DNA from: a virus
Strand: one strand, 5' to 3'
IMG/VR virus record: IMGVR_UViG_3300033148_006102
Coordinates: 32,001 to 96,000 of that record
Length of the DNA stretch: 64,000 nucleotides
Within the stretch, counting starts at the first letter, position 1. Every line of letters begins with the position of its first letter. A program made the position numbers and the translations under genes. Positions 7,509 to 54,595 of this stretch are shown here, piece after piece. The notes under the pieces are model-generated. The model was not told the origin of the DNA. It worked only from the letters and a program-made list of their open reading frames with translations, and searched no databases.

Positions 7509-8137
7509 TGTACAACAACACAGTATCCAAACGACCGACACATATCATTTGTGGCGTACCGCTTATCCAGAAGGCAATGGAAGATACAGGTGTGCCATCA
7601 GAGAATTGGGCGTACCCGACAGAGCATCGTCTCGGGGATCCTGTGCACGATGATTACTACGCGGAGATCTGGACCAATGGCATGGATTGGCAGGTGGTTT
7701 ACTGGTTGCTTGAGCAGCGCAATCTGGATAACCCGGTCGCGATTCCGTTGATCACCTTTGACGACTACAAGGACCGCGAGGCCTTTCCGGACTTCGATGA
7801 GTTCTTGATTGCACTTATATGGGAGCGCCGGCGTTCATCGCGCAAGGATGACAACAATTGGGGAATATACTGGGATTCGGTATGGCCGTTCTTTCAGATT
7901 CAGCTCGATAGGACGCAGCACACGAATGCAACAAAGCCTGGTGAGCCGTTTTGGGTAGGCGCGAAGTTTGAGCACGCCGGCGGCCGATCAGAGTTCTATG
8001 TGCATCGTACTGTGGCTGAAATGGCTGTGGTATATCGTGCTGCACAGGATGAAGCGGTCAAGCGCCATAAACAGAAGTATCCAGACGAAATGGATATGAA
8101 AGCGGAGACCGAATTTCCTAAGACACGCATGCCATAG
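7508..8137 (+). CDS. hypothetical protein
   Basis: GAGGAG before ATG; last gene before terminator. Confidence 0.7.
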   Translation: MYNNTVSKRPTHIICGVPLIQKAMEDTGVPSENWAYPTEHRLGDPVHDDYYAEIWTNGMDWQVVYWLLEQRNLDNPVAIPLITFDDYKDREAFPDFDEFLIALIWERRRSSRKDDNNWGIYWDSVWPFFQIQLDRTQHTNATKPGEPFWVGAKFEHAGGRSEFYVHRTVAEMAVVYRAAQDEAVKRHKQKYPDEMDMKAETEFPKTRMP

Positions 8138-8404: not shown

Positions 8405-8578
8405 TTATTCGTATGTGCCGACGCAATCAGCGTCAGACGACTGGGTAGTTTGTGCTAGTATTGTGCGCATCAGGGGTTCCAGTTCGAAATCCGCGTCGCG
8501 CAGGTCTTTCAGCTCCTCGTTGTCGTAAACCTCGACAACTTCTGTTTCTTGTTCGACTTGTGTGAGGTAAACGAACAT
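8405..8578 (-). CDS. acidic 57-aa hypothetical protein (below ORF-track cutoff)
   Basis: read manually: MFVYLTQVEQETEVVEVYDNEELKDL...; abuts previous stop. Confidence 0.5.
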   Translation of the reverse strand: MFVYLTQVEQETEVVEVYDNEELKDLRDADFELEPLMRTILAQTTQSSDADCVGTYE

Positions 8579-8827
8579 TTAGAGGCGATACCATTCTTCG
8601 CAAAACGGTAGGCCGATGACGGTCAGTCCGTCTTCGTTTTCGGCGACTTTGAGTACGCCGTAGTTGGTGTACTTCCAGTGGCTGCATTCGCTGTAGATCC
8701 AGGCAATACCTTCTTCGGCTGCGCTGGCGTCAGCTTTGGTGGCAAGTTTGACGTCGTCATCTGGTAGATTTGTAAAACAGATCACGAACAGCGCCGCGAT
8801 AAGCATAATGAATAGAACGAGTCTCAT
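8579..8827 (-). CDS. small protein with N-terminal signal/TM segment
   Basis: AAGGAG RBS; hydrophobic N-terminus. Confidence 0.6.
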   Translation of the reverse strand: MRLVLFIMLIAALFVICFTNLPDDDVKLATKADASAAEEGIAWIYSECSHWKYTNYGVLKVAENEDGLTVIGLPFCEEWYRL

Positions 8828-8907: not shown

Positions 8908-9267
8908 TTATGAGACATACCACGTTGCTTGGGGATGGAGCAGCGCCCACCCAAGTAATACATTGCAGGCGTGACCAGCGTTGCCGCGGGTTGCTGCCCA
9001 GTAGTCTTCGTCTTTATCTATCCCGAGTTCACGTACCATACGTTCAAGTTCAGGTACGGTATCCGTAGCATGACGTCCATGCAGATTACGGAGACTGAAT
9101 CCGAGATCCCGCCAGATGGTCGAGTAGTTGTACGTGATACATATGTCGGCCGCACAGCTGTCAATAGGATTGCAGTTGAGGTCGGCCATCAAGATACTGC
9201 CTTCGCGGTGAGGTGGTACTGAGACTGCGCGGCCGTCTGGGTTTTCGAGTCGTACAGTGAAGCTCAT
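8908..9267 (-). CDS. hypothetical protein
   Basis: ATG coupled to previous stop. Confidence 0.6.
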   Translation of the reverse strand: MSFTVRLENPDGRAVSVPPHREGSILMADLNCNPIDSCAADICITYNYSTIWRDLGFSLRNLHGRHATDTVPELERMVRELGIDKDEDYWAATRGNAGHACNVLLGWALLHPQATWYVS

Positions 9268-9461: not shown

Positions 9462-9732
9462 AGCTTCCTTTCTATTCAGCCCACTCACCGTGCAGGTGCG
9501 CACTCAGTTGCTTTCGGTCGAAGCATTTACGTTCAAAATAAATGCCTTGGATGAAACCAATGGTATGCATGGTGGCTGAGATATCGTTTTTCTTGGCAGA
9601 TTTCAGAGCGACCTAGCAGAGAGCGTATGCCATCGTGTGCGATGGACTTACCAATCGTTGGCCGCTGTACCGCATATAACGATGGATCAAATCAATGATT
9701 TTGTCTTGTGTGAGAGCAGGCATAATTCCTTT

Positions 9733-10284
9733 CTAGAATAATTCGGCCATGCGTTCATCAAAGAACCCATCAGGCCAATCACTCGTAAAGTCGCCTTCGT
9801 CATTGATTTCCAAAGTGACGTTTTCGCCATCTTTGGTTATGTATATGACTGTGACATCTTTGGGTGTGATGCACGGTGTGTCTTTATCTTCGTGATGTTC
9901 GCGGATGCGACGCAGAATGCGAAGCATGAGGTGCTCGCTGTGCGTCTCCACGAAGATAGTGTTACCGAGTTTGTGCGACTCAATTAATAAATCGCCAAGT
10001 TCGACCTGGACCTTTGGGTGCAGGCCGGTCTCTGGATACTCGATTCCGATGATGTCGTTTTCGTTGCCCAGTAGCGCATTTACTACGGGTTCGATCATTG
10101 TCCAACCGAAACCACCGATAATGAGATTGGACATCATCCATGTACGACCAGCATTGTATTTGGTAGGTCGTCGGTAGTTGAGGTTGCGCCGTGCGTCAAT
10201 GTATGTGCATTTGCGAGGGTCGCACAACCCTTTAAGGAGTGAGGATTTACCTACGCCGGTAAATCCAAAGATGAGAGTGATCAT
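9733..10284 (-). CDS. miniature ABC/AAA_21-type ATPase with DUF3696-like C-terminus
   Basis: Walker A GFTGVGKS, GFG signature, IEYPETGLHP, ETHSEHL, terminal WPDGFFDE. Confidence 0.75.
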   Translation of the reverse strand: MITLIFGFTGVGKSSLLKGLCDPRKCTYIDARRNLNYRRPTKYNAGRTWMMSNLIIGGFGWTMIEPVVNALLGNENDIIGIEYPETGLHPKVQVELGDLLIESHKLGNTIFVETHSEHLMLRILRRIREHHEDKDTPCITPKDVTVIYITKDGENVTLEINDEGDFTSDWPDGFFDERMAELF

Positions 10285-33923: not shown

Positions 33924-33952
33924 TTGATTCTTGATGCTATCACAGATACCTT
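33924..33952 (+). promoter_or_regulatory. sigma70-like promoter of tRNA unit 1
   Basis: TTGATT-N17-TACCTT; same -10 as the promoter at 49967. Confidence 0.6.
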
Positions 33953-33966
33953 TACGTCTTACTGTA

Positions 33967-34107
33967 ATGGATAGCTTTTGCTACATGTTGCGGATGAGAC
34001 CAATGCGTTTGATAAGACAAGCCGAACCGAAAACGACACCAGTCACCCATAATATGGGTCGACAGGTGATTGATTTCGCGTGGAAGGATCCCGGCCGGTT
34101 TGCTTAA
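33967..34107 (+). promoter_or_regulatory. leader peptide ORF 1 (46 aa; alternative ATGs at 33985, 33994, 34003)
   Basis: MDSFCYMLRMRPMRLIRQAEPKTTPVTHNMGRQVIDFAWKDPGRFA*; last codons overlap the antiterminator strand. Confidence 0.65.
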
Positions 34108-34166
34108 AAGACGCTGAACATAGTAGCGCAAACCGGCGGGAACTCAAAAGCCCGCCGGTTTCTTTT
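34094..34166 (+). terminator. mutually exclusive antiterminator/terminator (attenuator 1)
   Basis: GCCGGTTTGC (34094-103) pairs with GCAAACCGGC (34128-137); AAACCGGCGGG (34130-140) pairs with CCCGCCGGTTT (34151-161), followed by a U-tract. Confidence 0.8.
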
Positions 34167-34171
34167 TGACA
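34161..34171 (+). promoter_or_regulatory. boxA-like variant
   Basis: TCTTTTTGACA, followed by ACTTTGTGA. Confidence 0.45.
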
Positions 34172-34200: not shown

Positions 34201-34283
34201 TCAGGGCAACCTTCGGGGTGAAGGAGCGGGCTGTTAACCCGTCGTGAGAAATCACATGCTGGGTTCGACACCCAGGCCCTGAG
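34201..34283 (+). tRNA. trnN: tRNA-Asn(GUU), long variable arm, no encoded CCA
   Basis: TCAGGGC/GCCCTGA acceptor, GCGGG-CTGTTAA-CCCGT, CTGGG-TTCGACA-CCCAG, G73. Confidence 0.75.
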
Positions 34284-34953: not shown

Positions 34954-34962
34954 CTTGAGGAT

Positions 34963-35040
34963 GCCTAGCGAGGCCGAAGTAGTCGAGGCACTTGGTTGTG
35001 GTCCAAGGGGAAGTGGGCGCAAGTCCCATCGCTAGGCCCA
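34963..35040 (+). tRNA. trnH: tRNA-His(GUG) with G-1; atypical T-loop CGCAAGT
   Basis: CTTGG-TTGTGGT-CCAAG, C73, CCA end. Confidence 0.85.
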
Positions 35041-35050
35041 GATTGAAAGA

Positions 35051-35124: not shown

Positions 35125-35135
35125 GCTCTTTGACA
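35125..35135 (+). promoter_or_regulatory. rrn-type boxA
   Basis: GCTCTTTGACA; no -10 element at promoter spacing. Confidence 0.55.
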
Positions 35136-35158
35136 TCTGAAACGGCCAAACAAAAAAC

Positions 35159-47435: not shown

Positions 47436-49031
47436 ATGGCGAACAAGTCAATTTTCAGCACCCAGCGGGGGCCTGTACATCGACAGTACGGGGAAAGTGT
47501 GAAGACCGTTGATACGGTCAATGAGGCAGGCGGAGAGGCTTACAGCTTCACAGCAAAGTCTGCATTGGCGCAGTTGGCATCGACGGGCTGCTTTGGCAAC
47601 ACGTTCTATGTGAATGCCAAGAGTCAGCTTGACAAGGTTCAGGAATTGTTGCCACAGGTTGACAGCGAGTTTTTGGCCAAGCTGGCCGTATATGCCCGCC
47701 AGAAGGGTTACATGAAGGACATGCCGGCGCTCATGCTCGCGTATCTCTTCGCGCATGCGAAGGATTCTGCGACAGTTGGCGCGTATTTCAAGGCAGCGTT
47801 CCCGGAGGTCATGGACAATGGCCGTATGTTGCGAAACTTTGTCCAGATCATCCGTAGTGGCGTCACCGGGCGTAAGTCGTTCGGTACGGCCGGCAAGCGT
47901 GTGATCCAGGACTGGTTGACTAACCGGTCATACTGGAAGTTGTTCGGCGAAGCAGTTGGCAATGATCCGTCGATGTGTGATGTGCTCAAGATGACGCGGC
48001 CGCATCCAAAGGATGATGAGCAGCGTGCATTGTTTGGTTACATCACTGATGCGAAGGAAGGTTGGGACCGCGAGGCTCTGCCGGACTTCGTGAAGGAATT
48101 TGAGGCCTTCAAGCAGGATCAGACCAAACCTGTACCGAACGTTTCATTCGAACGGTTGTCTGCCCTTCCGCTTGGAAAGGAACACTGGATCGAGATCGCC
48201 AAGAAGGCGACTTGGTTCCAGACGCTCAAATCTCTTAACACGTACAAGCGTCATGGGGCGCTTGAGCATTCTGATGTTGTCGACATTGTCGCTGAGCGTT
48301 TGGCAGATCTTGAGTTGGTCAAGAAGGCCAAGGTATTTCCGTACCAGATCTTTGTGGCTTACAAGGCCGCGAATGACCTGCCACGGAAGATTACTAATGC
48401 GCTGCAGGATGCGCTGGAGCACGCGCTCCGAAACATCCCATTTTATGAGGGCCAGGTTTACATCTTCCCAGATGTTTCCGGCTCAATGTTATGGGGTAAC
48501 TTGACAGGTCATTCGCAGAGTTCAATTCGTTGTATTGACGTGGCGGCATTGATCACCGCGGCGATCATGAAGACGAACTATCTGGCGGAAGTACTTCCGT
48601 TTGATACACGCGTGCATGATGCGAAGTCATTGAATCATCGTGATTCAGTAGTACGCAACGCAGAGATCTTGTCGCGCTTTGGCGGTGGCGGAACGTACTG
48701 CGAGCTTCCGCTGCGTGAACTGAACGACCGTAACGCGAAGGGCGACCTGTTAATCTACGTCTCGGATAACGAGTCGTGGGTCGGCGCCGGCTATCGCAGC
48801 CATACAGGCTTGCTCAATGAGTGGGCGAAGTTCAAGCAGCGTAACCGGCAGGCCAAGATGGTCTGCATTGATCTGCAGGCTAACACCAGCACGCAGGCAA
48901 CGGATACGCCGGACATCTTGAATGTCGGTGGATTCTCTGATCAGGTGTTCAACGTTATCGACGCCTTTTTGAAGGGTGGATCTGATAAGGAACATTGGGT
49001 CAAGGAAATCGAGAAAGTTTATCTAGGATAG
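47436..49031 (+). CDS. rsr: Ro60/TROVE-domain RNA-binding protein
   Basis: NEAGGEAY...GCFGNTFY...LAVYARQKGYMKD; C-terminal vWA with DVSGSM, SDNESW, VGGFSDQVF. Confidence 0.92.
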   Translation: MANKSIFSTQRGPVHRQYGESVKTVDTVNEAGGEAYSFTAKSALAQLASTGCFGNTFYVNAKSQLDKVQELLPQVDSEFLAKLAVYARQKGYMKDMPALMLAYLFAHAKDSATVGAYFKAAFPEVMDNGRMLRNFVQIIRSGVTGRKSFGTAGKRVIQDWLTNRSYWKLFGEAVGNDPSMCDVLKMTRPHPKDDEQRALFGYITDAKEGWDREALPDFVKEFEAFKQDQTKPVPNVSFERLSALPLGKEHWIEIAKKATWFQTLKSLNTYKRHGALEHSDVVDIVAERLADLELVKKAKVFPYQIFVAYKAANDLPRKITNALQDALEHALRNIPFYEGQVYIFPDVSGSMLWGNLTGHSQSSIRCIDVAALITAAIMKTNYLAEVLPFDTRVHDAKSLNHRDSVVRNAEILSRFGGGGTYCELPLRELNDRNAKGDLLIYVSDNESWVGAGYRSHTGLLNEWAKFKQRNRQAKMVCIDLQANTSTQATDTPDILNVGGFSDQVFNVIDAFLKGGSDKEHWVKEIEKVYLG

Positions 49032-49036
49032 GAATT

Positions 49037-49178
49037 TGGGGCGAATGCGGACGGGATTACATTGATTCATAATCCGTTGGTCGGAGGTTCGAATCCTTCC
49101 CTCGCCACCACTATGGCGAGGTAGCTCAGTCTGGTAGAGCAGCGTATATGTCAAATCTCGTCGATTCTCGTCGCCCCA
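49037..49178 (+). ncRNA. Y RNA (YrlA-like) containing a permuted tRNA-Met
   Basis: TGGGGCGA/TCGCCCCA outer stem, GAATGC...TACATT motif, T-arm then capped acceptor then D-arm. Confidence 0.8.
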
Positions 49179-49195
49179 TCCTTTTCCTTCTTATT

Positions 49196-49274
49196 TGGGT
49201 GAATGCCGGTATGGGAGTACATTTCTGCGTGTAATGCTGAACCATGACCACTCTCTACCATCTTTCGTCACCCA
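49196..49274 (+). ncRNA. Y RNA 2 (no tRNA-like domain)
   Basis: TGGGTGA/TCACCCA stem, GAATGCCGG...GTACATT, 3' TCGTC. Confidence 0.7.
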
Positions 49275-49285
49275 CCCTTTTGAAA

Positions 49286-49353
49286 TGGCCGAATGCCGAT
49301 TGGACTACATTGTATCCATCACAAACAACGTCTAATCATAAGCTCGTCGGCCA
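49286..49353 (+). ncRNA. Y RNA 3 (no tRNA-like domain)
   Basis: TGGCCGA/TCGGCCA stem, GAATGCCGA...CTACATT, 3' CTCGTC. Confidence 0.7.
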
Positions 49354-49362
49354 TTTTCTTTT

Positions 49363-49759
49363 GGGGGTGAGTAGGATCGACTGGTCGTTACTGACTGGAA
49401 GAAGCGTGTCGCAGTTGACCAACACCTGCGTTATCAAGATGGTCGCAAACCCAGATGGCAACATCCATCACATGAGCGATTACGCTCGTCCGCAGCTTCA
49501 GGCTGCATAAAGGACAGCTCCGACCAGGTAGCTACCACACCTGGCTGCGGGATACCAACCCAAGGTGAGAAACCAAACAGAGTTAGGTCGGTGAACATGC
49601 CGCAGAGGGGATTCACCATCGAAGTTACGGCGGATAAGGCGTGACCGGGCTGTCGTCGGCTCAGAGGATCGCTCGAAAACATAGATGACGACTACACACG
49701 TAGAAGTGCCGGAATGATCGATACAGCACACGGGGTGCGACTCCCCGTCACCTCCACCA
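49363..49759 (+). ncRNA. ssrA: tmRNA; predicted tag (A)ANPDGNIHHMSDYARPQLQAA
   Basis: GGGGGTGA...GGATCGAC 5' end, G3:U70, T-arm plus TCCACCA 3' end, tag ORF 49445-49510 ending in AA. Confidence 0.9.
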
Positions 49760-49765
49760 GATTTT

Positions 49766-49873
49766 GCCGTCGAATGCGGTGATAATTATTACCCCGCACT
49801 GAAAACTATTTCGGGAATTTGGCTACCGGAAATAGGCAGTAGGAAGCCGAATAGCCTACGGGGAATCGGCGGC
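49766..49873 (+). ncRNA. unassigned multi-branch structured RNA candidate
   Basis: GCCGTCGA/TCGGCGGC outer stem enclosing three hairpins; begins with GAATGCGG. Confidence 0.4.
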
Positions 49874-49907
49874 CCATATTGAGAGCGCACGGGGGTTCCG
49901 TGCACGC

Positions 49908-49957
49908 GCCGCGCAACGTTCATGCTCATGTCCGTTGCGCGGCTGCTTTCTTTTTTA
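49908..49957 (+). terminator. intrinsic terminator ending tRNA/Ro60/tmRNA unit 1
   Basis: 11-bp GCCGCGCAACG/CGTTGCGCGGC followed by TGCTTTCTTTTTT. Confidence 0.7.
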
Positions 49958-49966
49958 CGAAGAGGG

Positions 49967-49994
49967 TTGACATCCGATTTATCGAATGTACCTT
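49967..49994 (+). promoter_or_regulatory. sigma70-like promoter of tRNA unit 2
   Basis: TTGACA-N16-TACCTT. Confidence 0.65.
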
Positions 49995-50014
49995 GAGATG
50001 TTCGCGGAGCTTAG

Positions 50015-50130
50015 CAGGCTTGCACTGCGATTTCGGTTTCTCTGTTCCGACCTGGCACGCTATGCGTGATTAAAAACAGAGTGGTGGACTGGGACAGTGG
50101 ATGGAGGACACCAAATCCGCCGGAAGCCTG
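50015..50130 (+). ncRNA. long irregular hairpin RNA candidate
   Basis: nested pairs CAGGCTT/AAGCCTG, GCGATTTCGGT/ACCAAATCCGC, CTCTGTT/AACAGAG, CACGC/GCGTG. Confidence 0.4.
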
Positions 50131-50184
50131 TCACGCCCTCGTCTTGATCCGGGACGCTAACTTGGATCAGCTTTTTGAATTTGT

Positions 50185-50262
50185 TGCGGGGTGGAGCAGT
50201 CTAGTCAGCTCGCAAGGCTCATAACCTTGAGGTCGTCAGTTCAAATCCTTCCCCCGCCACCA
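50185..50262 (+). tRNA. trnfM: initiator-type tRNA-fMet(CAU) with disrupted T-stem
   Basis: GCGGGGTGGAGCAG...GCTCATAACC...TTCAAAT...CCCCGCCACCA; 1:72 mismatch; T-stem GTCAG/CCTTC has 2 of 5 pairs. Confidence 0.7.
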
Positions 50263-50275
50263 ATTTGGAGAAAAG

Positions 50276-50341
50276 ATGAAGACGTTACTGAGTTACTCGT
50301 CCTTGTATCTGTGCCTCTCAGGCGCGGAGGTTGGCGTGTAA
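50276..50341 (+). promoter_or_regulatory. leader peptide ORF 2, MKTLLSYSSLYLCLSGAEVGV*
   Basis: GGAGAAAAG before ATG; 12 consecutive Leu/Ser/Tyr/Cys codons; stop inside the antiterminator strand. Confidence 0.75.
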
Positions 50342-50401
50342 CTGGATCTTCATCACCTACCGGTCCCAGAAACCCGCCAGCACAACCTGGCGGGTTTTCT
50401 G
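50331..50401 (+). terminator. mutually exclusive antiterminator/terminator (attenuator 2)
   Basis: AAACCCGCCAG/CTGGCGGGTTT terminator with T-rich tail; 50331-345 can pair with 50366-380 (12 of 15). Confidence 0.75.
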
Positions 50402-50405
50402 TTGA

Positions 50406-50416
50406 GCTCTTTGACA
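50406..50416 (+). promoter_or_regulatory. rrn-type boxA
   Basis: GCTCTTTGACA directly after attenuator 2. Confidence 0.6.
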
Positions 50417-50433
50417 TTTGTGACGGAACTAAT

Positions 50434-50523
50434 GGTCGGTGTTCCCCATGGCGGTCTGTAAAACCGTTGTCGTTAAATATTTGGGGTAGTAGACGAATGG
50501 TCCAATTCCATTACCGACCACCA
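50434..50523 (+). tRNA. trnY: atypical tRNA-Tyr(GUA): no D-stem, long variable region
   Basis: GGTCGGT/ACCGACC acceptor, GCGGT-CTGTAAA-ACCGT, AATGG-TCCAATT-CCATT, A73, CCA end. Confidence 0.72.
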
Positions 50524-50540
50524 TTTCTTGAAAGGAAAAC

Positions 50541-51029
50541 ATGGGAAGAGAAGTACGAATGGTTCCACCCAACTGGAAGCATCCAATAGGCGATCGTGGA
50601 TACCTACAACCAATGCACGATGAGAACTTCGAAGAAGCACTTGCGGAGTGGAAGAACGGTCAGGCTGCATGGGAAGCTGGCACGCACGAAGATTTCGCAG
50701 AATATGGTGAAGACACCTCCTGGGAAGATTGGGCCGGCGAAGAGCCAGAGCCTGAATACTATCGGCCATGGAAAGCCGAAGAAGCCACGTGGTATCAGCT
50801 CTGGGAGACGGTTAGCGAAGGTACGCCGGTAACACCACCTTTTGCAACAAAGGAAGAGCTCGCGGACTACCTAGTCAATGTCGGCGAAGACTTCGGCCGG
50901 CGACAGACATGGCCGCGCGAGGCCGCTGATAACATGATGCGAGAAGAATGGGCGCCTTCGTTCATTGCTCGAGACGGCGTGATAATGGAGCCTAAGGATC
51001 CTGCTTTCTTTTCGGGAATGAAGAAATAA
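50541..51029 (+). CDS. acidic Trp-rich hypothetical protein
   Basis: GAAAGGA RBS; YQLWETVSEGTPVTPPF. Confidence 0.7.
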   Translation: MGREVRMVPPNWKHPIGDRGYLQPMHDENFEEALAEWKNGQAAWEAGTHEDFAEYGEDTSWEDWAGEEPEPEYYRPWKAEEATWYQLWETVSEGTPVTPPFATKEELADYLVNVGEDFGRRQTWPREAADNMMREEWAPSFIARDGVIMEPKDPAFFSGMKK

Positions 51030-51032
51030 TAA

Positions 51033-51109
51033 GCCTCCGTAGGCGAATTGGGATAGCCGCTTGACTTAGGATCAAGTGTTTGTGAGTTCGACTTTCACCG
51101 GAGGTACCA
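51033..51109 (+). tRNA. trnL: tRNA-Leu(UAG), short variable arm
   Basis: CTTGA-CTTAGGA-TCAAG, CCA end. Confidence 0.88.
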
Positions 51110-51114
51110 ATATT

Positions 51115-51236
51115 GAAGAGTACGGCGACGCAGCGAACTGCGGACGGGGTAGGCGGGTTGCTAGCACTTGGCCTGCACGGGCGGAATAAATCGAAAGACG
51201 CCGTGAGCAGAGGTAATTGAACTGCCCGTACTCTTC
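51115..51236 (+). ncRNA. unassigned five-helix structured RNA candidate
   Basis: perfect 11-bp GAAGAGTACGG/CCGTACTCTTC stem closing four hairpins. Confidence 0.55.
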
Positions 51237-51244
51237 TTCATTTT

Positions 51245-51321
51245 GGCAGCGTAGGCGAATTGGGATAGCCGCCGTACTCAAAATGCGGTGTTTGTGGGTT
51301 CGACTCCCACCGCTGCTACCA
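51245..51321 (+). tRNA. trnL: tRNA-Leu(CAA), short variable arm
   Basis: CCGTA-CTCAAAA-TGCGG, CCA end. Confidence 0.88.
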
Positions 51322-51330
51322 CATTCAACT

Positions 51331-51413
51331 GGCTGGATGGCGGAACTGGTAGACGCGCACGGTTGAGGGCCGTGTTCCCAGGAGTGAGGGTTCGAATCCC
51401 TCTCCAGCCACCA
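51331..51413 (+). tRNA. trnL: tRNA-Leu(GAG), long variable arm
   Basis: CACGG-TTGAGGG-CCGTG, CCA end. Confidence 0.92.
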
Positions 51414-51423
51414 GTTTGACGGA

Positions 51424-51500
51424 GCCTCCGTAGCCCAACTGGGAGAGGCACTTGGTTTAAGCCCAAGTCAGTGTCGGTTCGAATCCGACCGGAGGTACCA
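51424..51500 (+). tRNA. trnL: tRNA-Leu(UAA), short variable arm
   Basis: CTTGG-TTTAAGC-CCAAG, CCA end. Confidence 0.88.
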
Positions 51501-51501
51501 A

Positions 51502-51589
51502 GGAGGTATGGCTGAGTGGAAAAGCTCCCGGTTGCTAACCGGTGGACAGGGTAACACCTGCGCAGGTTCGAATCCTGCTACCTCCGCCA
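51502..51589 (+). tRNA. trnS: tRNA-Ser(GCU)
   Basis: TTGCTAA loop, long variable arm, G73, CCA end. Confidence 0.9.
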
Positions 51590-51608
51590 ATTTTCTTAAA
51601 GGAGAAAA

Positions 51609-51980
51609 GTGAAACGATATAAGCTGAACCTATCAACAAGATTAGTCGGCACGCTAAATATAGAAGCCGAATCAAAAGAAGAGGCCCTGGAAAAGGCAAA
51701 CGTACGAAGTGATAACAGTAATATCGAATGGTTGAATCACGACCAGGCAGCTGAGATCACCGGTGTTGACTGTCTGGGCGAGGCCACCATCCGCGAATAC
51801 ACCTTCACGGTTAAGCGACAGCTTCAAGGTCAATGTGAAGTAGAGGCGGCTAATGAAGACGAGGCCCGCCGAAAGCTCGACAGTATCATGGAGCATAGTG
51901 ATGGTGACATCGAATGGGATGATGATGGCTATGACATCGAAGATGTTGAAATTGAGGAATGGGAAGCTGACGAGGAGTAA
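51609..51980 (+). CDS. acidic protein with two DpnD/PcfM-like repeats
   Basis: LNIEAESKEEALEKA and CEVEAANEDEARRKL. Confidence 0.6.
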   Translation: MKRYKLNLSTRLVGTLNIEAESKEEALEKANVRSDNSNIEWLNHDQAAEITGVDCLGEATIREYTFTVKRQLQGQCEVEAANEDEARRKLDSIMEHSDGDIEWDDDGYDIEDVEIEEWEADEE

Positions 51981-51981
51981 A

Positions 51982-52479
51982 ATGTCGGCAAAATGTAAAA
52001 CACCAAACAAAATAGATCTCAAGAAGCTCGATCTTTATCGAGTCAAATTTGAATGGAATGGTGAGACAGTTTACGGTCTTGTCGATTTGTACGATAGAGA
52101 CTCTGATGAATACGCCGAACGTGGCTTAGTACTTGTGGATCATTGTGTGCTGAGGACACGATATGCGCTACCGCCAAGTAAACTGACACCAATGAAATGT
52201 TCTTTTGAACCTGATGATGAATTTGACCAATATGTTGAGCAGCAGGCCAAAGAGGCGCAAGAGCTCCATAAATCGCTGCCGAAGGACAAGCTCTGTGTTG
52301 GCCATATGTTTTCAATCGGTGTGGGCGATGGTTATGCGTCTTATGTGGTAACAAAGGTATTCAAGAAGAATTGCGATATTGAATGGCGCGGCTTCTGTGT
52401 GGATCGTTGGACGGACCATCACTTCGGATGGGGCGGCCGCTTCCCGATCGATGAGATCATGCGGTACGTGGGACCATAG
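51982..52479 (+). CDS. hypothetical protein
   Basis: GAGGAG before ATG. Confidence 0.65.
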   Translation: MSAKCKTPNKIDLKKLDLYRVKFEWNGETVYGLVDLYDRDSDEYAERGLVLVDHCVLRTRYALPPSKLTPMKCSFEPDDEFDQYVEQQAKEAQELHKSLPKDKLCVGHMFSIGVGDGYASYVVTKVFKKNCDIEWRGFCVDRWTDHHFGWGGRFPIDEIMRYVGP

Positions 52480-52487
52480 CTTTGACG

Positions 52488-52703
52488 ATGTACATACGCG
52501 AGTCCGCGGATGAATATAGGCCGATCTCAGATGAGGAATTCGATGAGATCAACCGCAAGTGTGATACTGTTTCAGGTGATGCAATTTGTGAAGTATGTGG
52601 AAAACCATATCGTGATCACCCTACGTTGAAGATATACCAGGATCGACACACAGCGTGGTGGTTTCCGAAGATCCTTTGCAACGGGCGCTATGGTCATACG
52701 TAG
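52488..52703 (+). CDS. small hypothetical protein with CEVC...H motif
   Basis: last base of stop is tRNA G1. Confidence 0.55.
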   Translation: MYIRESADEYRPISDEEFDEINRKCDTVSGDAICEVCGKPYRDHPTLKIYQDRHTAWWFPKILCNGRYGHT

Positions 52704-52789
52704 GAGGGTACCGCTGAAGTGGTCGGCAACCGGTCTTGAAAATCGGGGTGGTGTAACAGCCAGGGGTTCGAACCCTCTACCCTCCGCCA
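52703..52789 (+). tRNA. trnS: tRNA-Ser(UGA)
   Basis: CCGGT-CTTGAAA-ATCGG, long variable arm, G73, CCA end. Confidence 0.88.
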
Positions 52790-52896
52790 AATTACTACGC
52801 CCTCGGTGGCTAAATAGACCTCCGAGGGCGTAGCGAAAAGGCTCGACGCATTCTGGGAAGGTTTTTCAGATCTGTCAATTGCAATCTTTTGTACGG

Positions 52897-52969
52897 GGCC
52901 GCGATCCGCTGGGAGTGGGGTGCGTCTGCAAAACGCACAGATCAGGTTCGACTCCTGACGCGGCCTCCA
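52897..52969 (+). tRNA. trnC: tRNA-Cys(GCA)
   Basis: TGCGT-CTGCAAA-ACGCA, U73, CCA end. Confidence 0.88.
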
Positions 52970-53089
52970 TAATTTTTTACCTGCCTCCGCGTTTGTGGAG
53001 GCAGCTGTCGTTGCTGGTTATACTGATAAAGAGAGGCTGTCTAATTTGGGACTATCGCATAGTCCCAGGTCGGTTCGTGGAGCTAGCTC

Positions 53090-54595
53090 ATGACCATTCC
53101 CGCCAGACAACGAGATACGGTTTCACGTGAAAACCGGCTTGTAGATTTGCTCCAAAAGTACATCGCTACTCTGTCAACTTCAGACCAGACACTGGCGCGC
53201 GCAGATCTAGCGTCAATGGGTATTGAGATTGACAATTATGCTAAGGCCGGTGCGGCTTCTTTGGAAGCGTTGCGCAGTGGGCTTGGCTACGTCCAATCGC
53301 AATATGGTGCCGGGGAAGGCGAGTATGTCCCGCAGGTCAAATTGACCATTGAGTCATTTGTCGCGGATTTTGCTGCAGCCTTAGCGGAGCTGAACACTGC
53401 TATTGAGGAAGCACGGGCGATCAATCAATTTTCGATCGAGCTCATCCTGGAGCGTACAGATCCTTCAACCAGCACATGGTTCTATATGAAAGAAGCTGTA
53501 GCGGGTGATACGACGCTGAGCTTAGCTGGTTTTGAGAATGTGTTCATTTCATCCTACGACACGTTACGTGTTGCGTGCATGGAAATGAAGCTACATTTGA
53601 GCAAGAATATCCGACGACTCGTTATCACGGATGCCTATGTGGGCGCGTACGAGATTGAGCCGGTCGAAGATGATGGGACTGTATCAACCTGGGCGTATCC
53701 ACTAACGTTGGATCTCATAGGTGGTGCGCTATACGAGCGAGGCACAGCAGCGCCATTTACAGCCACACGTCTTCCGGTTGGTGCAGTTTATTCCCGGCGT
53801 GCACAGCTGTTTGCGCCGTTGTTAGGCTATCCGTTGGAATCTAGCGCGTTAACGTACAACACGCTTTATATGTTCGATGAGCTGAGTTGGGTTCTTGGAT
53901 CCACTCCGCAGAATGGACTCATCAAGCTTTTAGATGGCTATGATACAGAAGTAACTATTCGTCGGCCGTACATGCAAGGTAGCAGTGCAAACGCGGCGTT
54001 ATTTACGGTGGCACCAGGCGAAATTGGCTTCTTCCGGATGCTGTACGTGTACGACCACATATATCCACGAGGTGGTTTGCGGCCGCGCTATGTGCTGTTC
54101 GCCAGCGTAGATGGCGCTACGTACAACATTAATGAGGCGTTGTTTGCCGATACGCCAGACGTTTATAATCGTTCACTTGATGATCAGGTAAACGGTTGGT
54201 TCCCGCTTGATTCTACGAAGGCACCGCTAGCACATTATGGCCGTTGCACCTTGCGGAATATCGCGATCCAGACAGCAGATTGGAGTTACCTAAATGATTC
54301 GATCTATGTGGATGTGACAGAGTCGTTTGTGTTGGATAACGTGCGTCTTCATAAAGACGGGGATACTAATCCCATGTTCTCGATGCACAGCGATTGTACA
54401 GTGCATTTGACGAACTGCCATTTTGACGGCGCTATGGCATGGCCTATCATCGAAGAGAATGGTGGTACACCAACAGTAAATGTATTGGTTAATTCAAGCT
54501 TTATGGGAACTGGTTTCACCGAGTGGCTGAAGGGCCAAGGTGTGACAGCGAATGGCGCTGTCGGTCGTAACATTGAAAACGGGGCAGTAGTCTAA
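53090..54595 (+). CDS. probable virion protein, C-terminal beta-helix-like region
   Basis: 501-aa ORF upstream of structural block. Confidence 0.65.
   Translation: MTIPARQRDTVSRENRLVDLLQKYIATLSTSDQTLARADLASMGIEIDNYAKAGAASLEALRSGLGYVQSQYGAGEGEYVPQVKLTIESFVADFAAALAELNTAIEEARAINQFSIELILERTDPSTSTWFYMKEAVAGDTTLSLAGFENVFISSYDTLRVACMEMKLHLSKNIRRLVITDAYVGAYEIEPVEDDGTVSTWAYPLTLDLIGGALYERGTAAPFTATRLPVGAVYSRRAQLFAPLLGYPLESSALTYNTLYMFDELSWVLGSTPQNGLIKLLDGYDTEVTIRRPYMQGSSANAALFTVAPGEIGFFRMLYVYDHIYPRGGLRPRYVLFASVDGATYNINEALFADTPDVYNRSLDDQVNGWFPLDSTKAPLAHYGRCTLRNIAIQTADWSYLNDSIYVDVTESFVLDNVRLHKDGDTNPMFSMHSDCTVHLTNCHFDGAMAWPIIEENGGTPTVNVLVNSSFMGTGFTEWLKGQGVTANGAVGRNIENGAVV

Follow-up and report, generated by a model that had tools for sequence, protein, structure and literature searches.

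Leader-peptide attenuation is a textbook mechanism which, to our knowledge, is known only for amino-acid biosynthesis and for a synthetase operon. In the trpL leader, pairing of region 1 with region 2 and of region 3 with region 4 terminates transcription, while pairing of region 2 with region 3 lets the polymerase read through; the stop codon lets the terminating ribosome mask region 2, and the start region is sequestered once the transcript is complete. The ilvGMEDA, ilvBN and thr leaders carry a short open reading frame (ORF) with codons for several amino acids, led by a Shine-Dalgarno (SD) sequence and followed by a terminator and a competing antiterminator between which the position of the ribosome decides. 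The pheST leader (pheM) attenuates a component of the translation apparatus in response to its cognate charged tRNA, and the T-box riboswitch also switches between terminator and antiterminator according to the state of a particular tRNA. Here we analyse a locus with a comparable predicted layout, found in a 64,000-nucleotide (nt) stretch of phage DNA, the window, which corresponds to bases 32001-96000 of the IMG/VR virus record IMGVR_UViG_3300033148_006102 (195,108 bp, with direct terminal repeats). On the plus strand of this window a 21-codon leader ORF is followed by a predicted intrinsic terminator and then by a block of genes for Tyr-like, Leu, Ser and Cys tRNAs (Table 1; positions are those of the window unless a contig is named). 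We consider it likely that this cassette is a ribosome-mediated transcription attenuator of the trp/ilv type that gates the phage tRNA block. The tRNA set would probably be made only when ribosomes read the leader codons slowly.

The locus departs from the described systems in what it would control and in how it samples codons. The ilv and thr leaders control biosynthetic enzymes, with charged tRNA serving as a proxy for the amino acid, whereas here the tRNAs that read the leader would themselves be controlled, in a direct feedback. Those leaders contain tandem repeats of a few codons; here nearly all codons differ and there is about one for each tRNA species. Likewise, trpL has two Trp codons for a single amino acid, in contrast to a run of 12 codons here that spans four amino acids and eight tRNA species; in addition, the targets at this locus are tRNAs and a boxA-like element follows the terminator. 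The pheM leader serves a synthetase, senses a single amino acid and belongs to the host, whereas tRNA genes of a phage are concerned here. The T-box itself recognizes uncharged tRNA, by means of a specifier codon and the T-box sequence, and needs no ribosome, whereas a translated ORF is predicted here. An Rfam scan of positions 48900-53100 at E<=1 returned only tRNA, transfer-messenger RNA (tmRNA), YrlA and chance matches, with no leader family, the ilv and thr leaders included, and no T-box. The gated genes are tRNAs and small ORFs, not biosynthesis or synthetase genes, and the other features by which an attenuator is recognized in sequence are present or predicted, the 1:2 pairing in an ambiguous register; tRNA genes as the regulated target are the point of novelty. 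Full-text literature searches outside subscription journals found no description of tRNA genes, phage or bacterial, that are controlled by leader-peptide attenuation. Within that same coverage, the statement in a preliminary description of this DNA that such a switch had not been described for phage tRNA arrays holds.

The preliminary description had reported a 21-codon ORF with a good ribosome-binding site, 12 consecutive Leu, Ser, Tyr and Cys codons, an intrinsic terminator and a boxA behind it. All four elements were recovered at the positions given in Table 1, the terminator in silico and the last one as a boxA-like motif that is also kept after the terminator of a distant relative. The GGAGAAAAG context of the leader SD also precedes the 123-amino-acid (aa) ORF at 51609, and we infer that the leader ORF is translated. 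The codons of the run had further been said to match the eight tRNAs behind them, namely Tyr, four Leu, two Ser and Cys. Seven of these tRNAs were called by ARAGORN (51033-52969), but the Tyr gene is non-canonical and was not called. Each of the eight anticodons does have a cognate codon in the run, and 11 of the 12 codons can be read by the downstream set under standard wobble; the exception is TCC, for which this set holds no such reader. Finally, the ORF does not stand as the leader of the whole array, in which a tRNA-Met lies directly upstream of it and 20 more tRNAs called by ARAGORN lie further up, but it does stand as the leader of the Tyr/Leu/Ser/Cys block.

Both the run and its coverage of anticodons are rare. 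No other Leu/Ser/Tyr/Cys run, in any of the six frames of the 195-kb genome, reaches the 12 codons of this one; the runner-up has 10. Block-wise Markov shuffles preserving composition (n=60) gave no run of at least 12 codons, and runs of 11 averaged 0.07. Given 12 Leu/Ser/Tyr/Cys codons, all eight anticodons were covered in 3.4% of random draws, and the chance of such coverage falls to 3.3e-4 for a random 20-codon ORF at the codon usage of the phage. Across the genome, 11 of 258,379 open segments of 12 codons cover all eight anticodons, at four places that include the leader. Coverage alone is thus rare and not unique; the combination of coverage, run, SD, terminator and position is unique.

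The predicted folds of the leader follow a trp-type geometry in this phage. In the long 1:2 hairpin, the start codon pairs with 50348-50354 and the AGT-TAC codons pair with the context of the stop codon. When the 5' half of the ORF was masked and the 3' arm of the terminator omitted, region 2 paired with 50375-50381, in the 5' arm of the terminator, in a fold of -18.8 kcal/mol. When a ribosome was placed at the stop codon, the terminator formed. That termination and readthrough take place and respond to decoding speed, and what the boxA-like motif contributes, we infer from the sequence.

A homologous cassette was found in a distant relative, identified through its terminase (45% identity). 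This relative is the 178,574-bp contig JAJCZB010000071.1, binned into a metagenome-assembled genome (MAG). Its first 18 kb, the part examined and hereafter called L026, contain an array of tRNA genes along with a tmRNA and an initiator-like tRNA-Met. There the cassette directly precedes the Leu block and follows a protein gene, not the tRNA-Met. Its leader starts at ATG 8934, with AAGG 10 nt upstream, and has 21 codons with the stop at 8997-8999; the stop-codon context GTAACTG is common to both leaders. The terminator (L026:9032-9063) differs in its stem sequence and lies at the same place, with z = -5.0 in silico. It is followed by the same motif at L026:9068-9082, and tRNA-Leu(UAG) starts at 9095. 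The trailer of the relative's tRNA-Met contains no such ORF, and there are no tRNAs behind its terminator. Since the cassette stands in front of the Leu block, behind a protein gene, and is absent from the tRNA-Met trailer, it travels with the Leu block. As for the present arrangement in the phage studied here, the stretch just 3' of the leader stop, at 50342-50351 (CTGGATCTTC), is common with the trailer of the relative's tRNA-Met (L026:13929-13938) and not with the relative's cassette, which suggests that a rearrangement fused the leader cassette to the tRNA-Met trailer.

The pairing predicted for antitermination is kept between the two phages. The helix between region 2 and the 5' arm of the terminator joins GUUGGCG to CGCCAGC in the phage studied here and GUCGGUGC to GCACCGAC in the relative. 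In an in-register alignment, all seven pairs are standard in both phages, with two double compensatory changes and one one-sided change, and slid registers pair just 23-67%. This comparison uses a separate alignment running from region 2 through the 5' arm, RNAalifold on a MAFFT alignment having misaligned the differing terminators. The alternative fold of the relative is significant on its own (z = -3.4, with 1 of 200 shuffles as stable), and its predicted 1:2 hairpin is of the same kind (z = -4.4), with the Ser-Tyr codons again paired to the stop context. The placing of an antiterminator strand at the ORF's end in the preliminary description is supported by these compensatory changes but does not stand above shuffles in this phage alone. 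Its reading of the locus as an attenuator of the trp/his/pheST type fared in the same way: the core of it is supported by the relative, in cassette position, ORF length, stop context, pairing and codon set, but the antiterminator is at chance level when this phage is taken by itself.

The leader codons change together with the tRNA block that follows. The block of the relative holds four Leu tRNAs, Ser-GCU, Gly-UCC and Phe-GAA, all called by ARAGORN, together with a Ser-UGA tRNA that is 86% identical to that of the phage studied, a Cys-like gene whose acceptor and anticodon arms are conserved, a Tyr-like gene carrying a GUA arm and a weaker Trp-like candidate. The 13-codon core of its leader contains a cognate codon for 11 of these 11 species and one unmatched codon (Thr). 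The chance of such coverage is 4.4e-6, and this is the sole such place in the 18 kb examined. TTT, GGA and TGG are present in the relative's leader and missing from the leader here, where the Phe, Gly-UCC and Trp genes sit in the upstream block instead; measured against the relative's block, the leader here covers 8/11 species, compared with 8/8 for its own. The preliminary description had expected leader codon content to co-vary with the downstream anticodons, and had counted homologous loci lacking the correspondence as evidence to the contrary. In this one relative the covariation is borne out, by TTT, GGA and TGG with Phe, Gly-UCC and the Trp-like gene, and each species of the block has a codon in the leader.

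Only 7 of the 21 positions are identical between the two leader peptides, yet their composition and length are kept and the order of residues is not, which points to selection on codons and RNA and not on the peptide. It is most improbable that the product of the ORF is a small hydrophobic or signal-like peptide acting in its own right. The peptide does begin with Met-Lys followed by a hydrophobic stretch, as such a peptide would, but no mature domain stands behind this stretch, and the conserved C-terminal residues coincide with the covarying RNA helix. A remnant of a lipoprotein signal peptide was also considered and rejected: the ORF has kept both its length and its stop codon, and the lipobox position lacks a Cys.

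The same comparison bears on another explanation, that the hairpin is an ordinary terminator ending a short unit of promoter and tRNA-Met, with a structured spacer behind it, the ORF and its codons being incidental and the downstream tRNAs transcribed from elsewhere. Terminators commonly stand behind tRNA genes, and a tRNA-Met does lie just upstream; the antiterminator is not above shuffles here, and the tRNA-Met of the relative has a trailer and a terminator with nothing behind. We nevertheless regard this explanation as very unlikely. The ORF, its length, the stop context and the motif are conserved at 45% terminase identity and still stand before the Leu block in the relative, where they come after a protein gene, and coverage of the block by leader codons reaches 8/8 and 11/11 against chances of 3e-4 and 4e-6. 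Moreover, the stretch from the terminator to the first gated gene contains no promoter-like site that has a -10 hexamer, and the relative's tRNA starts 12 nt downstream of the motif.

A further cassette stands in front of the first tRNA block. Located at 33924-34171, at the head of the whole island, it opens with a promoter-like site (TTGATT, 17 nt, TACCTT; 33924-33952) and comprises a leader ORF with its stop at 34105-34107, a terminator of 11 bp and a motif variant. The predicted antiterminator, a perfect 10-bp helix, joins 34093-34104 to 34128-34140. The counterpart in the relative lies at L026:4100-4300, before tRNA-Pro, which is its first tRNA. The leaders of the first block cover 18/21 species of their own block here (p 0.013) and 16/20 in the relative (p 0.005), and hold only 2-3 codons for the second block. 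This shows that the putative attenuator design is used twice per genome, with complementary codon sets.

We also considered that the attenuator is real but senses general translation capacity or amino-acid starvation through whether or not a ribosome arrives, instead of the supply of particular tRNA species, its codons being shaped mainly by the needs of the 1:2 hairpin. The run does lie in the 5' arm of a conserved predicted hairpin, in which AGT and TAY pair with the stop context in both phages, and any slow decoding, including that caused by uncharged tRNA, would give the same output. However, constraints of the hairpin do not account for the representation of every tRNA species of the block, or for the restriction of Phe, Trp and GGA codons to the phage whose block has those tRNAs. 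The leader of the first block has a complementary codon set. We regard a general sensor of this kind as unlikely.

If the locus is an attenuator specific for its own tRNAs, it would work as follows. Transcription from the promoter-like site at 49967 would first produce the initiator-like tRNA-Met and then the leader, and a ribosome would load at GGAG/ATG 50276 as RNA polymerase proceeds. With prompt decoding, the ribosome at the stop codon would cover region 2, the terminator would fold and transcription would end. Without any translation, region 2 would stay paired to the ORF's 5' half in the long hairpin, and termination would result as well. Scarcity of any of the eight tRNA species would stall the ribosome in the run, where it would mask the 5' half of the ORF and leave region 2 free to pair with 50375-50381, so that the polymerase could read through. 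It would then cross the boxA-like element, perhaps becoming resistant to termination, and transcribe the Tyr-like gene, the four Leu, the two Ser and the Cys genes. The new tRNAs would relieve the stall, closing a negative feedback.

Several observations weigh against this mechanism. The antiterminator of this phage is no better than chance, with 440 of 1000 shuffles of region 2 equally stable and 68 of 1000 equal in both stability and arm coverage for this phage alone. The shuffle control of the two-phage helix gave 112/500, a control that is weak because only two sequences enter it; a single relative was informative, so that covariation here means two sequences. The register of the 1:2 hairpin is ambiguous, and RNAalifold favours another helix which itself covaries. 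The U tract of the terminator is interrupted (UUUUCUGUU), and three other places in the genome also cover all eight anticodons within 12 codons. Most tRNA species are represented by one codon, fewer than in classical leaders, and the response may be shallow. The Tyr-like gene here and the Tyr-, Trp- and Cys-like genes of the relative may not be working tRNAs. Finally, arrays of jumbo phages sampled elsewhere were without such cassettes, and the cassette is not universal.

A further possibility, put forward in the preliminary description, which would refine the attenuator and does not exclude it, is that the switch answers host anticodon nucleases and serves as an inducible counter-defence. Phage tRNAs are reported to offset tRNA-cleaving defences. 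The design would respond to the loss of any one tRNA species, and the island also contains a tmRNA, a pair of Ro60 and Y-RNA, and a Pth2-like gene. On the other hand, nothing in the sequence links the locus to a nuclease, and the species sampled (Leu, Ser, Tyr and Cys, with Phe, Trp and Gly in the relative) are those of the block itself and not a known set of nuclease targets. A feedback between supply and demand, or decay of host tRNAs during infection, suffices and explains the design equally well, and we consider the counter-defence role unlikely.

More broadly, and with considerable doubt, we raise the idea that the tRNA blocks of giant phages are self-tuning units, in which a sampler with one codon per species lets the loss of any species switch on the whole set. 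Codon demand, decay of host tRNAs or an anticodon nuclease of the host could each cause such a loss, and in the last case the unit could act as an inducible, codon-specific counter-defence. If the attenuator operates as proposed, tRNA supply would be under direct feedback control through the decoding speed of the codons that those tRNAs read, and phage tRNA expression would be conditional instead of constitutive. This would explain the sorting of tRNAs into blocks in some giant phages and would provide a simple and portable sensor for the availability of individual tRNA species. It would also make testable whether phage tRNAs serve to match codon usage, to compensate for the loss of host tRNAs or to evade tRNA-targeting defences. 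The locus is a good candidate for a first experiment because the homologous cassette covaries in both RNA pairing and codon set.

Table 1. Positions of the leader cassette, the gated block and the adjoining upstream features in the window.
Feature	Position	Strand	Basis or remark
Strong hairpin with U tract	49906-49946	+	Ends the preceding unit
Promoter-like site P2 (TTGACA, 16 nt, TACCTT)	49967-49994	+	Read from sequence; putative start of the unit of tRNA-Met, leader and gated block
tRNA-Met (CAU), initiator-like	50185-50262	+	ARAGORN; Rfam tRNA model, 42.5 bits; 1:72 mismatch read from sequence
Shine-Dalgarno GGAG	50267-50270	+	5 nt before ATG
Leader ORF, 21 codons	50276-50341	+	ATG 50276, TAA 50339-50341; homologous 21-codon ORF in the relative, L026:8934-8999
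Long imperfect 1:2 hairpin (anti-antiterminator)	50276-50354	+	Minimum free energy fold; z = -2.5 alone, -4.5 with terminator
Regulatory run, 12 codons, 11 different (codons 4-15)	50285-50320	+	5 Leu, 4 Ser, 2 Tyr, 1 Cys
Region 2, antiterminator 5' strand (last three sense codons, directly before stop)	50330-50336	+	Predicted pairing with 50375-50381
Intrinsic terminator (regions 3 and 4), 14-pair hairpin and U-rich tail	50366-50401	+	Predicted; hairpin at 50367-50401; -23 kcal/mol, z = -6.4
BoxA-like motif AGCTCTTTGACATTT	50405-50419	+	Directly 3' of terminator
Tyr-like tRNA without D arm	50434-50523	+	First gene after terminator; anticodon-arm search and fold
162-aa ORF	50541-51029	+	Inside gated block; widespread homologues at <=55% identity in unrelated contexts
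tRNA-Leu(UAG), structured spacer, tRNA-Leu(CAA), Leu(GAG), Leu(UAA), Ser(GCU)	51033-51589	+	ARAGORN, Rfam
Three small protein ORFs (123, ~165 and 73 aa)	51609-52703	+	Inside gated block
tRNA-Ser(UGA), tRNA-Cys(GCA)	52703-52969	+	ARAGORN; last genes of the block
Hairpin probably closing the unit	52981-53004	+	-19.2 kcal/mol, z = -3.0; weak U tract

The locus belongs to the last part of a plus-strand island that holds 28 tRNA genes called by ARAGORN at about 34-53 kb of the window. The -10 hexamer of P2 is that of the first promoter-like site of the island (33924-33952). The tRNA-Met lies upstream of the attenuator terminator, and its 3' end is 4 nt before the leader SD. A leader of about 180 nt separates P2 from the tRNA-Met (49967-50184), with a weak terminator-like hairpin at 50144-50170 and a T run at its end. 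A small ORF at 50101-50160, also upstream of the tRNA-Met, has its stop in the loop of this hairpin. Further upstream, the segment 47436-49759 carries a phage Ro60 (TROVE-like) gene and, behind it, a YrlA-like RNA (49038-49180; 64.9 bits, cut-off 69) and a tmRNA (49363-49759; 69 bits), the relative's tmRNA being at L026:13004-13408. A Pth2-like gene is found in the island as well.

The motif at 50405-50419 resembles the core of the Escherichia coli rrn boxA, the loading site for NusB/NusE, at 10 of 11 positions. As with an rrn-type boxA, it heads a long and mostly untranslated array of RNA genes, where protection from termination would make sense; unlike an rrn-type boxA, it follows a putative attenuator and not a promoter, and recurs inside arrays. 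It recurs after a tRNA at 35125-35139 in this phage and at L026:5228. Present in both phages, AGCTCTTTGAYATTT and its variants recur directly behind attenuator terminators and single tRNAs and ahead of the tmRNA, with a further site at L026:12990. A scan for the 15-nt motif gave >120 matches, mostly random, and a 10-nt core shows no enrichment across the window (10 matches versus 7.4 expected). The TTGACA within the motif was examined as a -35 box and rejected, there being no -10 hexamer at an allowed spacing and the relative's tRNA following the motif at 12 nt. One site (L130:9017) belongs to an unrelated high-GC phage, where it stands directly before a 13-tRNA array, without a leader.

Searches for further homologous cassettes covered several collections. 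A terminase search in IMG/VR gave no relative, and the exact 26-mer of the leader had no match there. Two more large phage contigs binned into MAGs (terminase at 38% and 29% identity) had few, scattered tRNAs and no cassette. Relatives of the Ro60 gene (45% identity) had no tRNAs nearby; relatives of the SNF2 gene reached <=39% identity, and the nearest of them (G001) had 17 scattered tRNAs and no cassette. The stop context together with the motif gave nine matches in a metagenome collection, all random. Ten jumbo phages with a similar tRNA-Ser(UGA) showed no cassette of terminator and leader in the DNA examined, and Pectobacterium phage CBB, whose tRNAs are single and interspersed with ORFs, is not comparable. 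Three phage-like contigs of 176-190 kb, identified by terminase similarity, are filed in bacterial MAGs: JAJCZB010000071.1, CAZCPY010000001.1 (L158) and CAYMWP010000001.1 (L161), under the labels Dependentiae, Rhodobacterales and Anaerolineales. This placement is probably a binning artefact and not evidence of the host.

Within the gated block, four protein ORFs are interspersed among the RNA genes. The Tyr-like gene lacks a D arm but shows an acceptor stem of 7 bp, A73-CCA, a T arm and a perfect anticodon arm (GUA); ARAGORN did not call it, and neither did the Rfam tRNA model at E<=1. A structured RNA with a long closing stem lies among the Leu and Ser tRNAs in both phages (51115-51236 here, about 10490-10610 in L026), at different positions in the block. 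Other tRNA-like genes were also missed by ARAGORN. In this phage these are, with the D-armless Tyr-like gene (50434-50523), an Asn-like gene at 34201-34283 and a His-like gene at ~34955-35045. In the relative they are of Cys, Trp, Tyr, His and Asp type (L026 ~9668-9745, 9747-9815, 9894-9978, 8535-8612 and 7675-7748). In both phages the non-canonical genes have intact anticodon arms and acceptor stems, together with odd D or T arms.

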